In this document: piece after piece, positions 36,001-39,000 of the stretch
Position numbering within the stretch: the first letter of the stretch is position 1
Layout of the letters: each line of letters opens with the position of its first letter
Origin: Thermodesulfobacteriota bacterium
Lineage (GTDB): Bacteria; Desulfobacterota_D; UBA1144; Nemesobacterales; Mycalebacteriaceae
Reading direction: 5' to 3'
DNA length: 64,000 nt
Assembly: GCA_965198945.1 (NCBI GenBank)
Contig: CBDAQI010000001.1
Span: 1-64,000 of the forward strand
Made by a program: the position numbers

Positions 36001-39000
36001 TTGATGACTGGGGGGTGGACATCTGCTACAGCGGAACACAGAAGTGCCTGAGTGTTCCACCGGGAATATCGCCCTTAACCTTCAGCAAAAAAGCCGAAAG
36101 AGCTCTTTTCTCAAAGAAAGACAAGGTTCAGAGCTGGTATCTGGATCTCTCAATGATATGCAAATACTGGGGAGACGAAAGGGTTTATCACCACACCGCT
36201 CCGGTTTCAATGCTTTTCGCTTTAAGGGAAGGGCTCCGGATTGTCCTTGAGGAAGGACTGAAAGAACGTTTTGAAAGACACGAAAAATTCGGAAAACTGC
36301 TCTCCGGCAAACTCACGGAACTTGGATTCAAACCCTTCGCACGTGAGGGATACAGACTTCCGATGCTGGCCTCCGTTTTTCTGCCGAAAGGAATGCCGGA
36401 TGCGGAAACAAGGAAGACTCTGCTGAACAAACACAAAATGGAAGTGGGACCGGGGCTCGGGGAAACAAAAGGGAAAATCTGGAGAATAGGCCTCATGGGA
36501 GAGAGTTGCTCACTTGAAAATATTGACAGGCTTGCGGACGCTCTGATGGATGTGAAAAGAGTTTGAACACAAGGTTGTGGTTTGACTTGCACCGGTGTTT
36601 CGTTATAATGGCAGGCCTGTGATTCGGCATGAAAACCTACGTTGAAAAGGCGAATAAAAAAGACAGAGAGTGGCAAGTAGTTGACGCGCAAGGGAAAACG
36701 CTCGGGCGGCTTGCAACAAAACTCGCCACGATTCTGCGCGGCAAAAACAAACCCAACTTCACCCCCCATGCGGATACCGGGGACTTTATTGTCGTTGTCA
36801 ACGCCTCCAAAGTTCAAATGACCGGGAAAAAACTCACAGACAAAATGTATTACAGGCACAGTGGTTATCCGGGCGGGCTGAAATCCGTTTCGGCGCAGGA
36901 GTTGCAGTCCGGAAAACCGGAGGAAATACTGAGAAAAGCCGTGTGGGGAATGCTTCCGAAGAACAAATCACAGAATAAACTCATAAAAAGGCTTAAAGTT
37001 TACGCGGGAGAGTCTCACCCGCACTCCGCGCAAAACCCCAAACCTGCGGAATTCTAATCCCGCTGAGGAAAAAGAAAATGGCTGTCAGCGAAACAAACAT
37101 ATCCAACGGAACGGGAAGAAGAAAAAATTCAGTGGCCTCCGTATGGGTAAAGCCCGGCACGGGTAAAATCACCGTTAACAAAAGGGAGATGAAAGAATAC
37201 TTTCCGCGCCGGACATGGCAGATAAAAATCAATGAGCCTCTTGAGGTAACAAAATCCGAAGGTCTGTTTGACATCTCGGTCAACGTCAGAGGAGGCGGTC
37301 TGACGGGTCAGGCGGGCTCCATCTGCCACGGTCTTGCCAGAGCGCTTTTGAAGCACGATGAGACCTTGAGAAAAAAACTGAAATCCGCCGGACTTTTAAG
37401 GCGGGACTCGCGCATGGTGGAAAGCAAAAAATACGGCAGGAAGAAAGCGCGCCGCGGACAGCAGTTCTCAAAGAGGTAATCTATTTGGCCTCAAAAAAGC
37501 CGGGCAAAGCCGAAAAAGCAAGACAAATCCCCCCTCCGGAAGGCAAACTGGGCGTTCTTCTTCCGGGCATCAGCGGTGCGGTAAGCACTACCTTCATAGT
37601 CGGCGTTGAGTCTTTCAAAAAAGGAGCCGGCGAGCCCATCGGGTCTCTTACACAGATGGGAACCATACGCCTCGGCAAAAGAACCGAGGGCAAAAGTCCC
37701 AAAATCAAAGATCTTTTTCCGCTAACCGATTTGGAAGATATGGTATTCGGCGGCTGGGATATTTCTCCGGAAACCTGCCACGAGGCCTCAATCCGGGCCG
37801 GTGTTCTGAATAAGGCGACACTTGATGAAGTAAAAGAGGAAACAAACTCCATCAAACCGATGAAAGCGGTTTTCAACAAAAAATATGTGAAAAATCTTTC
37901 CGGCACAAACGTAAAAAAAGGCAAAACAAAAATGGATCTTGCCGAGCAGCTGATTGACGACATTGCGGAATTCAAAAAGACAAACAACCTCAAACGGGCC
38001 GTGATGGTCTGGTGCGGAAGCACCGAAACCTACATAAAAGAATCAGAGGTTCACGGCTCCGTCGCAAACTTTGAGCGGGGGCTCAAAGAAAATCACCCTG
38101 GTATAGCACCGAGTATGATATACGCATATGCGGCGATAAAATCCGGTGTCCCATATGCCAACGGCGCTCCGAACCTGTCGGCCGATATTCCGGCCCTCGT
38201 CTCGCTTGCAAAAAAACATAAAGTTCCAATTTGCGGAAAAGATTTCAAAACGGGGCAGACACTGATGAAAACCATAATCGCTCCGGGCTTGAAAGCCAGA
38301 ATGCTGGGCCTTAACGGTTGGTTTTCAACCAACATACTCGGAAACAGAGACGGTGAGGTTCTTGATGACCCGGGCTCTTTCAAAACAAAGGAAGAAAGCA
38401 AACTGAGCGTGCTTGAATACATACTTCAGCCCCAACTGCATCCGGAACTCTACTCTGACTACTATCACAAGGTCAGAATAAACTATTATCCGCCGCGCGG
38501 AGATGAAAAAGAAGCATGGGACAACATAGACATATTCGGGTGGCTGGGCTACCCGATGCAGATAAAAATAAACTTCCTGTGCCGCGACAGTATACTCGCC
38601 GCTCCGGTTGTGCTTGATCTTGTCATTTTTCTTGACCTCGCACGGAGAGCCGGAATGAAAGGAATTCAGGAATGGCTTTCATTCTATTTCAAAAGCCCCA
38701 TGGTCGCCCCGGGGCTTTACCCCGAACACGATGTTTTCATACAGCTTACCAAACTGAAAAATACTCTCCGGCACATTGCCGGCGAAGAACAGATAACCCA
38801 TCTCGGACTTGAGTATTATGAGAAGTAAGCTTGAAAGCCCGCGAAACTTCAGGAATCAGAAAACCGGATAAAGCTTCACGAACGGGGTCAAAAATTGTAT
38901 TCCAGTTTTGTCCCCACGCTTACACTGATAACACTGTCAAGATCACTTCTACTCTCCAAGATTGAGTAAGAAAGCTGTGATTGCACACCTATTCTGGCTT

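Follow-up and report, generated by a model that had tools for sequence, protein, structure and literature searches.

A predicted phosphatidylinositol route and a CpgD-like cytidylyltransferase pair in Dadabacteria without recognisable PgsA and LPS genes

Phosphatidylglycerol (PG) is treated as a near-universal anionic lipid of bacteria and as the donor for Lgt. Diderms free of PG and LPS are already known, as are the enzyme families of a route to phosphatidylinositol (PI). In Bacteroides thetaiotaomicron this route is encoded in a patchily distributed cluster with an inositol-3-phosphate synthase (MIPS, BT_1526), a PIP synthase (PIPS, BT_1523) and the PgpA-family PIP phosphatase BT_1525 (PMC9246714). 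PIP synthases are also described from mycobacteria and Renibacterium (5d91, 6h53), with S132, R155 and R195 as the inositol-phosphate residues of the Mtb enzyme (PMC4634129). A different head group is found in Caulobacter, where a ceramide-phosphoglycerate lipid made by the CpgD/CpgA pathway supports life without LPS (PMC12275187, PMC13228409); CpgD, a member of a promiscuous family, makes CDP-glycerate and does not use glycerol-1-phosphate (PMC12275187). Deinococcus and Thermus are diderms without LPS in which a glycosylated phosphatidyl-2-glycerate amide is the predominant phospholipid, and Deinococcus has Lgt and lacks PG (PMC6642908, PMC3035268, PMC10881803).

We analysed a window of 64,000 nt from a Dadabacteria genome (assembly 95% complete, 14 contigs). 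It contains a MIPS gene as the third gene of rplM-rpsI; the rest of the pathway is encoded beyond the window and is described separately below. The features of the locus are:

36582..36609, + strand: candidate sigma-70-type promoter, 11/12 consensus matches with a 16-nt spacer, 19 nt ahead of the rplM start
36629..37057, + strand: rplM, ribosomal protein L13 (TIGR01066 above the NCBIfam cut-off)
37078..37479, + strand: rpsI, ribosomal protein S9 (NF001099 above the NCBIfam cut-off)
37473..37477, + strand: Shine-Dalgarno-like GAGGT, spelled out by the final Lys-Arg-stop codons of rpsI and predicted to serve MIPS, whose TTG follows 7 nt further on
37485..38828, + strand: predicted inositol-3-phosphate (myo-inositol-1-phosphate) synthase, MIPS, with a TTG start 5 nt past the rpsI stop

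The product of 37485..38828 matches PF07994 and PF01658 above cut-off and resembles a solved MIPS over its full length. Its closest PDB match is 7nwr (E 1.4e-165, residues 10-439), which we take to be the B. thetaiotaomicron enzyme. The protein is therefore annotated as a putative inositol-3-phosphate synthase, predicted to form inositol-phosphate from glucose-6-phosphate. The initial annotation placed MIPS throughout the phylum and behind rplM-rpsI, in agreement with our counts: the gene is present in 90 of 91 phylum genomes and adjoins rpsI in all 66 loci examined, drawn from the 90 positive genomes.

The GAGGT at the end of rpsI is complementary to the 3′ end of the 16S rRNA of the genome under study. 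AGG is the final rpsI codon in 54 of 55 own-order loci, compared with 179 of 780 among the other rpsI Arg codons, and the gap measures 51 nt in the single locus without it. These observations suggest that GAGGT acts as the MIPS ribosome-binding site. Of 55 order genomes, 53 start the MIPS gene with TTG. The promoter candidate, a consensus match only, is the best of five sites in a region where 3.6 are expected by chance. MIPS would be co-transcribed with rplM-rpsI and translated from the Shine-Dalgarno sequence in the final rpsI codons; because of this co-transcription and the weak TTG start, inositol-phosphate supply would track ribosome synthesis in a damped manner, and MIPS output would be coupled to growth rate.

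The second gene of the predicted route is g00749 (C7:6525-7262), a PIPS-like gene with a CDP-alcohol motif (PF01066), which is unlinked to MIPS. Its profile matches solved PIP synthases over the full length with E values of 3e-31 to 4e-29; the match to 7drj, a solved PgsA, has E 5e-4. The NCBIfam values first quoted for it (1e-34 to 1e-27 with PI/archaetidylinositol phosphate synthases, 1e-7 with PgsA) were reproduced, as was the statement that it falls under all curated cut-offs: it reaches 94.9 of 170 bits with NF045883, 119.3 of 180 with NF040950 and 98.7 of 350 with NF052561. MIPS-adjacent orthologues in other phyla fall under the PIPS cut-offs as well. Among 15 aligned sequences S148 and R171 are invariant and R219 is kept in at least 90%; these align with S132, R155 and R195 of the Mtb enzyme, whereas K135 is replaced by Arg and P153 varies. 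Orthologues of g00749 adjoin MIPS in 11 of 80 MIPS loci, all in other phyla as judged by title and 10 of them at most 0.7 kb upstream. These data argue that g00749 works like a PIPS while lying outside the three equivalogs.

A PgpA-family phosphatase (PF04608) is found as a single copy in 89 of 91 genomes, in an ordinary pgpA-cinA-recA context with no inositol cluster. In the genome under study pgpA is frameshifted, probably by an assembly indel and not through true loss, as a near-identical 139-kb contig, possibly the source of this DNA, carries an additional base where the frame breaks; a like split affects the essential lspA. The sole PF00459 gene of the genome is HAL2/CysQ-like and not an inositol monophosphatase. 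MIPS, PIPS and PgpA are thus predicted to complete a Bacteroides-type PI route from the same three enzyme families. Unlike in the Bacteroides cluster, the Dadabacteria genes are scattered and are core across the phylum sample. CDP-DAG from CdsA would be divided between PssA/Psd, leading to PE, and the PIP synthase; the PIP formed would be dephosphorylated to PI by the PgpA-family enzyme, which would have no PGP substrate and would act as BT_1525 does. It is very likely that PI is made. PI-dihydroceramide is not expected here, in contrast to Bacteroides, because no serine palmitoyltransferase was found in this genome.

Canonical PgsA (TIGR00560 above cut-off) was detected in none of 97 genomes of this large order, which is uncultured, as first claimed, compared with 14 of 17 genomes of the sister order and 6 of 14 control genomes; an actinobacterial control keeps PgsA, unlike the Dadabacteria order. 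The absence spans genome sizes from 1.2 to 4 Mb and all eight families sampled. The initial annotation also reported three CDP-alcohol transferases and no cardiolipin synthase. For this genome both statements are correct: it has exactly three PF01066 genes, and no lipid synthase of the PLD/HKD type was found. One of the three is PssA, behind psd, and another is the PIPS-like gene; the third follows a cytidylyltransferase (CT) gene and fuses an NTP-transferase-like part to a CDP-alcohol transferase. Neither statement is a rule for the order. Among 76 order genomes 57 have three PF01066 genes, 18 have four or five and one has two. A fourth, PgsA-related gene occurs in 19 of 97, though in none of this genome's family; it is sister to PgsA in the tree (support 0.973) and lies under all cut-offs. 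Cardiolipin synthase above the TIGR04265 cut-off occurs in 4 of 97; in three of these, PgsA and the fourth gene are both missing. When PgsA of the sister order, the fourth gene and Cls served as queries in profile and tblastn searches of the genome under study, only the three known genes came up, and a weak PLDc match (E 0.056) was discarded as antisense to an amidophosphoribosyltransferase-like ORF and without an HKD motif. No PG consumer of the MprF type was found. The gene content supports the lack of a canonical PG or cardiolipin route in this genome and most of the order, and de novo PG synthesis is quite likely missing in its family and most of the order.

The lineage had also been described as an LPS-free diderm, and the gene set supports this description. 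LpxC is absent from all 91 genomes and LptF/G from 31, all of the own order, while BamA, Skp, a TamA-like Omp85 and BamD are present; the bamA locus reads bamA-skp-fabZ, without lpxD/A/B at that locus. Two membranes are predicted from this gene set. Lgt was found in 46 of 46 genomes and would, as had been proposed, draw on a donor other than PG, here predicted to be anionic; this probably holds for lipids made de novo. It is less surprising than first presented, since E. coli Lgt takes PA and PS in vitro (PMC4728403) and Deinococcus has Lgt without PG. The Dadabacteria Lgt retains an acidic residue at the site of E. coli E151, and its residues are uninformative on the lipid donor.

The CT gene (g00662/g00663 pair), present in all 91 genomes, adjoins its CDP-alcohol transferase in 30 of 30 loci and again in 14 of another 16, which bears out the pairing noted initially. 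The label given to the pair, IPCT/DIPPS-like, does not fit the CT. CT matches a Caulobacter protein with 34% identity (E 2e-46) and the solved IPCT with E 3e-9; we took this protein as CpgD, since its residue numbering and primer ends agree with those published for CpgD. In a FastTree phylogeny of 81 sequences, without a true IPCT and enriched in CpgD-like proteins by the choice of queries, CT falls in the CpgD group with support 0.996. The glycerate-site residues N110, M147, K161, S170 and W201 are present in 44 of 44 core copies, with CpgD Asn90 replaced by Ser (5/6), whereas T. maritima IMPCT keeps only the lysine of the five compared positions. The two genes score 78.8 and 68.5 of the 580 bits of NF041135 (IPCT/DIPPS). 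An accessory CT copy in one genome (G069), which we take to be of the IPCT type, shows the IPCT motifs that core CT lacks. MIPS lies beside none of the CT-relatives in 80 loci. Motifs, tree and neighbours argue against DIP or an inositol lipid as the product, and the pair is probably not inositol-related. A structure model of CT (pLDDT 47) was left unused. By its residues and tree position, CT likely makes CDP-glycerate.

The partner transferase has 431 aa, with a CT-like domain and a six-helix CDP-alcohol domain, as in AF2299 and the IPCT/DIPPS AF0263 (PDB 4mnd); its structure model (pLDDT 83) was used for the fold only. AF2299 and IPCT/DIPPS, enzymes of soluble substrates, are its best PDB matches. 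From IPCT/DIPPS the Dadabacteria pair differs in that its separate CT lacks IPCT motifs and falls with CpgD. The transferase is not a CpgA orthologue and groups nearer to Nitrospira enzymes of aminoethylphosphonate-like clusters, the phosphonate-like clusters in which the closest pairs of this architecture lie; its CpgA-like RRN motif becomes KRE in the sister order and in some own-order copies. A scan for related loci with a single transferase query gave no loci, an alignment-based scan returned, judged by title and identity, essentially Dadabacteria loci without outside context, and the names of 10 relatives were uninformative. We considered a phosphonolipid or phosphatidylcholine role, but the genome has no PEP mutase, no blast match to a decarboxylase subunit and no choline kinase above cut-off. 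No strong PAP2 candidate was found as a source of DAG.

Only the CDP-glycerate step resembles the Caulobacter system, with which the pair shares a CpgD-clade CT beside a CDP-alcohol transferase in a lineage that has no LPS genes. Ceramide is unlikely as acceptor because Spt, ceramide synthase, a CpgA orthologue, the metallophosphoesterase and LptF/G were not found in the genome. Sphingolipid synthases were not found either: the sole class II acyltransferase is BioF above cut-off, and there is no ceramide synthase match. As the CT is CpgD-like and such synthases were not found here, a second, glycerate-bearing anionic lipid is predicted. The core of the Deinococcus/Thermus lipid is what CDP-2-glycerate and DAG would give, a likeness of predicted product only. 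The Deinococcus route must differ, since it has no PF01066 match (control) and no PE, while Dadabacteria encode PE and PI synthesis.

Taken together, gene content, gene order, residue conservation and tree position are best explained by PI and a second, glycerate-based anionic lipid in place of PG, cardiolipin and LPS, to which we assign a probability of roughly 0.55. In this Dadabacteria genome with outer-membrane machinery, the CpgD-type CT would supply CDP-glycerate, and its operon partner would attach phosphoglycerate to DAG, a glycolipid or PI as acceptor in the envelope, so that a second anionic lipid would stand in for PG and LPS; that the end product of the pair is a membrane lipid has slightly better than even odds. 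The initial proposal of PI as the main anionic lipid keeps its complete predicted route, but "main" is overstated, since two universal features, the CpgD-like CT/transferase pair and a GT4, suggest one or more further anionic or glyco-lipids; we put its chances somewhat below even.

The proposal that PI dominates and that the pair makes a minor or a soluble compound, be it DIP, a solute of the glycerate-phospho-inositol kind or a decoration on a polysaccharide, is rather unlikely, even though the MIPS-PIPS-PgpA set is complete, universal and tied to a ribosomal operon. The weak TTG start argues for a modest MIPS output, and the pair is retained in 1-Mb streamlined genomes and within the core panBCD operon. 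A soluble product would agree with the AF2299/DIPPS six-helix architecture, linked with soluble acceptors (PMC4634129), and with second CT copies in one family (f4) that lie among glycosyltransferase genes without a transferase. Against it, CpgA, a lipid head-group enzyme, is similar in size and aligns across the membrane domain, and the IPCT motifs occur in the G069 accessory copy and not in core CT.

PG could also arise by a non-canonical route, through a g00749 promiscuous for glycerol-3-phosphate or through CDP-glycerol passed by the pair to DAG, with PgpA in its usual job. PgpA could indeed be a real PGP phosphatase, given its usual context and near-universal single copy; genomes that lack a recognisable PG source can carry ClsA, AF2299, the transferase's best sequence match, uses CDP-glycerol, and Lgt is acidic at the position of E. 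coli E151, which binds the PG glycerol in the E. coli enzyme. We nevertheless consider this improbable, as g00749 has the PIPS acceptor residues and lacks the PgsA motif of the sister order, which has a separate canonical PgsA alongside the same genes. Moreover, glycerol-1-phosphate is unused by CpgD and the CDP-glycerol synthases known so far belong to a family unrelated to it (PMC12275187), and PgpA action on PIP is documented (PMC9246714). A highly improbable alternative is that PG acquired from prey, a host or dissolved organic matter feeds Lgt, with PI and others as supplements. The ABC-type phospholipid transporters reported from all four Dadabacteria clades (PMC8115339) would suit uptake. 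Such uptake dependence is hard to sustain given PgsA-less genomes of all sizes and families sampled, and it leaves both the MIPS-rpsI coupling and the universal CT unexplained. The usual task of these transporters is lipid traffic from one membrane of the cell to the other.

Extending the preferred reading of PI plus a glycerate-based lipid, Dadabacteria may ancestrally have lacked PG, cardiolipin and LPS, with an anionic envelope of PI and phosphatidyl-2-glycerate, the latter formed by a Kennedy-style reaction of CDP-glycerate with DAG and perhaps given a sugar by the universal GT4. Lgt and the few orphan cardiolipin synthases would use this carboxylated PG mimic, or PI, as donor and substrate respectively, and the marine order would have regained PgsA from a Pelagibacteraceae-like donor. 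We regard this scenario as speculative and, as a whole, unlikely.

Literature searches on Dadabacteria and inositol, on Nemesobacterales and on CDP-glycerate with diacylglycerol head groups gave no report of such a lipid set, though supplementary gene tables could list the genes; the main text of PMC8115339 contains neither "inositol" nor "lipopolysaccharide". The CT/transferase pair appears to have been overlooked. If the reading is correct, a widespread lineage that swapped PG, cardiolipin and LPS for PI and a glycerate lipid would widen the known designs of diderm envelopes. CpgD would then be at work without sphingolipids, and the pair would offer a candidate for the enzymes that build the glycerate core of the Deinococcus-Thermus phosphoglycolipids. 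Five small, expressible genes (PIPS, PgpA, CT, transferase and Lgt) give sharp predictions testable in E. coli, and the predicted lipids could be environmental biomarkers of the Dadabacteria group. Finally, a lipid-precursor enzyme in a ribosomal-protein operon, with its predicted ribosome-binding site within rpsI, would let the idea that growth rate controls membrane composition be put to the test.

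The inositol-3-phosphate synthase gene (MIPS) of the studied Dadabacteria genome (G000; 1.39 Mb, 14 contigs, completeness 95%) stands in a row with two ribosomal protein genes in the window:

36629-37057, + strand: rplM, over its cut-off
37078-37479, + strand: rpsI, over its cut-off
37485-38828, + strand: MIPS, the ORF directly after rpsI

A promoter-like site with 11/12 matches lies just 5′ of rplM, and the single terminator-like site found on the + strand of the scanned region is weak and located within MIPS. In the phylum sample, the order of G000 (own order, Nemesobacterales) contributes 76/91 or 97/114 genomes, G000 counted in, and the sister order, with genomes of ~1 Mb, 15 or 17; the counts are not independent, as the genomes are kin, 32 of the 76 being from a single genus. 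MIPS was present in 90/91 genomes. In all 66 of the 90 loci that we examined (the 30 best-scoring and 36 picked for family and sister-order coverage) rplM, rpsI and MIPS were consecutive, which bears out the initial annotation of MIPS as universal and placed behind rplM-rpsI. Most loci with this gene order and a transferase of the G000 type bear the title Candidatus Dadabacteria or Thermodesulfobacteriota.

In the 55 own-order loci, MIPS starts with TTG in 53 and GTG in one (in one, no start codon was found), 5–9 nt past the rpsI stop in 52. The final rpsI codon, AGG in 54 of these loci compared with 179/780 of the other rpsI arginines, yields (G)AGGT, complementary to the 16S tail; in the sole own-order locus without it, the gap is 51 nt. 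In the sister order (11 loci) MIPS starts with ATG, and the final rpsI codon is mostly AGA. These directly observed features point to a single transcript for the three genes, with MIPS translation initiated from a site within rpsI and MIPS output presumably damped and coupled to ribosome synthesis. The putative ribosome-binding site inside rpsI is new here.

Upstream, a class V aminotransferase gene (35442-36566, + strand; BhcA/PhnW-like, below cut-offs) ends just before the rplM promoter. On the other side lies a 128-aa ORF (38888-39274, - strand) that has no Pfam or NCBIfam match; its C-terminus resembles the end of an outer-membrane beta-barrel, and it may be a frameshifted gene. At 31084-33055 (- strand) we see what we take to be a small gene pair like BrnT/BrnA-type toxin-antitoxin and two ORFs like nucleotide-modification-associated domains.

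The initial annotation had named g00749 (C7:6525-7262) a PIP synthase. Its best model matches are PIP/AIP synthases, with scores below those models' cut-offs. A 15-sequence g00749 profile matched solved PIP synthases end-to-end (E 3e-31 to 4e-29), against an E of only 5e-4 for solved PgsA (7drj). The family keeps equivalents of S132, R155 and R195, which PMC4634129 gives as inositol-phosphate residues, and orthologues adjoin MIPS in 11/80 MIPS loci. The final step of the route had been overlooked. A PgpA-family gene is single-copy in 89/91 genomes, and the PIP phosphatase of B. thetaiotaomicron is the PgpA-family protein BT_1525 (PMC9246714). By this analogy PgpA is probably the PIP phosphatase, an assignment new here, which would explain why it is kept although PgsA is gone; an ordinary PGP phosphatase would fit its context, pgpA-cinA-recA, equally well. 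Two G000 genes are split by frameshifts:

G000:C12:33103-33515, - strand: pgpA; one extra base at the break in the run X2 contig
G000:C4:108277-108700, + strand: lspA (essential)

Both splits probably stem from spurious single-base indels in the assembly. CdsA is present, and psd-pssA predicts PE synthesis. The only PF00459 gene resembles HAL2/CysQ, which fits inositol phosphate passing directly to the PIP synthase. We consider it very likely that PI is synthesised.

G000 has three CDP-alcohol transferase (PF01066) genes; neither a PgsA-like gene beyond these nor a PLD-type lipid synthase was found in it, in line with the earlier statement that it has no PLDc gene. TIGR00560 (PgsA) was over cut-off in 0/97 own-order versus 14/17 sister-order genomes, confirming the claimed absence from the order. 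All five congeners of G000, three of them single contigs, likewise have three PF01066 matches, and the missing PgsA is therefore not due to incompleteness. LpxC was not found in 91 genomes, nor LptF/G in 31; the bamA locus reads bamA-skp-fabZ, and lpxD/A/B are absent from it.

The initial count of three PF01066 genes stands for G000 and its five congeners, but 18/76 own-order genomes exceed three. Among the extra genes, which we examined except in G001, G014, G034 and G076, is a fourth one of 190–220 aa, present in 19/97 own-order genomes, of families f3, f5 and f6 only (L039-L049). It is sister to PgsA in our tree (support 0.973), below all cut-offs, and could make PGP or cardiolipin in its carriers. 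Cardiolipin synthase was over cut-off in 4/97 own-order genomes; three genomes have it without PgsA and without the fourth gene, as full ClsA-type candidates:

G054:C5:137359-138789
G090:C56:21690-23120
G093:C49:5493-6917

Canonical sister-order PgsA (L007-L018) has its closest outside relatives at 55–60% identity, the only taxon-named one being from Pelagibacteraceae, which hints at a possible regain by horizontal transfer. The gene-content observation is real and conserved, and de novo PG synthesis is probably lacking in G000's family and most of its order.

Two further genes, initially labelled IPCT/DIPPS-like, form a pair:

C5:58752-59540: cytidylyltransferase (CT), in 91/91 genomes, identity about 48–87%
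C5:57449-58744: transferase, 431 aa, preceded by CT

This arrangement, mostly behind panC-panD, recurred in 30/30 loci and then in 14/16 further ones, with 10/10 of the sister order among these 14 (the other two being a degenerate lone CT and a locus whose ORFs were filtered out). For CT we replaced this label: the match to solved IPCT is E 3e-9, MIPS was found beside 0/80 related CT loci, and an 81-sequence tree (Nitrospira thinned to 4 rows, every third CpgD-like row, no true IPCT) placed CT with the CpgD group (support 0.996). Its best outside matches come from loci resembling the Caulobacter ceramide-phosphoglycerate cluster, and a marker gene (cpgA, ceramide synthase, lptG or phosphoesterase) is present in 61/80 CpgD-like loci. 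The Caulobacter protein of locus L482 has G12, R16, K26, T88, N90, T93, N110, G111 and D112 at exactly the numbering of the CpgD papers (PMC12275187, PMC13228409), and its N-terminus agrees with the cpgD cloning primer published there. Identity of the Dadabacteria CT to this protein is 34% (E 2e-46), and to relatives of the protein it reaches 39%. Across the core CT copies (44/44), five of the six glycerate-site residues are retained, N90 being replaced by Ser; T. maritima IMPCT retains the lysine alone, and the N110 site is Asp in Nitrospira and most Bacteroidota copies. The retained residues, the tree position and the low IPCT likeness make CDP-glycerate the likeliest CT product, and a CpgD identity, new here, the likeliest assignment. 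G069 has an accessory IPCT-type cytidylyltransferase downstream of its core pair (L602:5600-6409). Genomes of family f4 (including L286:5001-5777 and L288:5001-5780) have a second CpgD-like CT among glycosyltransferase genes, without transferase, which suggests that a surface polysaccharide is decorated with phosphoglycerate.

Ceramide, the acceptor in Caulobacter, is unlikely to take the glycerate here, because none of Spt, ceramide synthase, a CpgA orthologue and LptF/G was found. The 431-aa transferase has the AF2299/DIPPS fold and forms a separate clade, with Nitrospira enzymes closer to it than CpgA. The RRN motif of CpgA helix 5 recurs in most own-order copies; KRE takes its place in the sister order and in some copies of the own order. 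The pair may yield phosphatidylglycerate, a glycerate-phosphorylated glycolipid or PI, or else a soluble or polysaccharide product. Two loci may supply glycolipids:

G000:C13:249583-250833, - strand: GT4 glycosyltransferase, single copy, beside der/engA, in 60/61 genomes, no curated family matched
L592:1123-2716 (G000:C1 about 84350-85950): PAP2-like gene, scoring below cut-off, that faces a glycosyltransferase of the MJ1255/VC2487 family

The GT4 is a candidate core glycolipid synthase; its nearest relative within the compared set of CT and MIPS loci (32%, E 4e-72, in L292) has a sister-clade CT on one side and on the other a CpgA-like transferase. The second locus may form a module for DAG and glycolipid. 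In Thermus, Meiothermus and Deinococcus the main phospholipid is a glycosylated phosphatidyl-2-glycerate amide (PMC3035268, PMC10881803), a parallel that we treat as a lead, not a test.

Related clusters were seen elsewhere. L291 and L293 (titled Thermodesulfobacteriaceae/Thermodesulfobacteriota) have genes like CpgD, LptF/G and CpgA, and an additional gene that we take to resemble ceramide synthase; these sets suggest ceramide-phosphoglycerate beyond Alphaproteobacteria. A recurrent Nitrospira cluster (L303-L360) presumably holds two decarboxylase-like subunits, a class V aminotransferase, CT, a fused CDP-alcohol transferase and a flippase-like gene, and looks like an aminoethylphosphonate-lipid pathway. 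L534:16411-18999 (G000:C12 about 98400-101000) shows, by appearance, genes like cas2, cas1 and the cas9 end.

G000 retains BamD, other lipobox proteins and the split lspA, and the prolipoprotein transferase Lgt was found in 46/46. Lgt keeps R143, E202, R239, E243 and R246; E151 is replaced by Asp, Y26 by Phe and H103 by Tyr. Of 40 own-order genomes, 31 have two or three paralogues of Lgt; G000 and its five congeners have one. Deinococcus is without LPS, PE and PG (PMC6642908), our Deinococcus control genome has Lgt, and in vitro E. coli Lgt also accepts PA and PS, as weaker donors (PMC4728403). This precedent makes a non-PG donor likely, where the initial annotation held that Lgt must use one.

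Each element has a known counterpart, in the Bacteroides/mycobacterial PI route, in CpgD and in Deinococcus without PG or LPS; we found no report combining these traits in Dadabacteria in a literature search of texts without supplements, including the accessible part of PMC8115339. Taken together, we give the whole, as the best explanation, a probability of about 0.55. PI as the main anionic lipid, as initially claimed, is a tentative reading that we rate somewhat below even.
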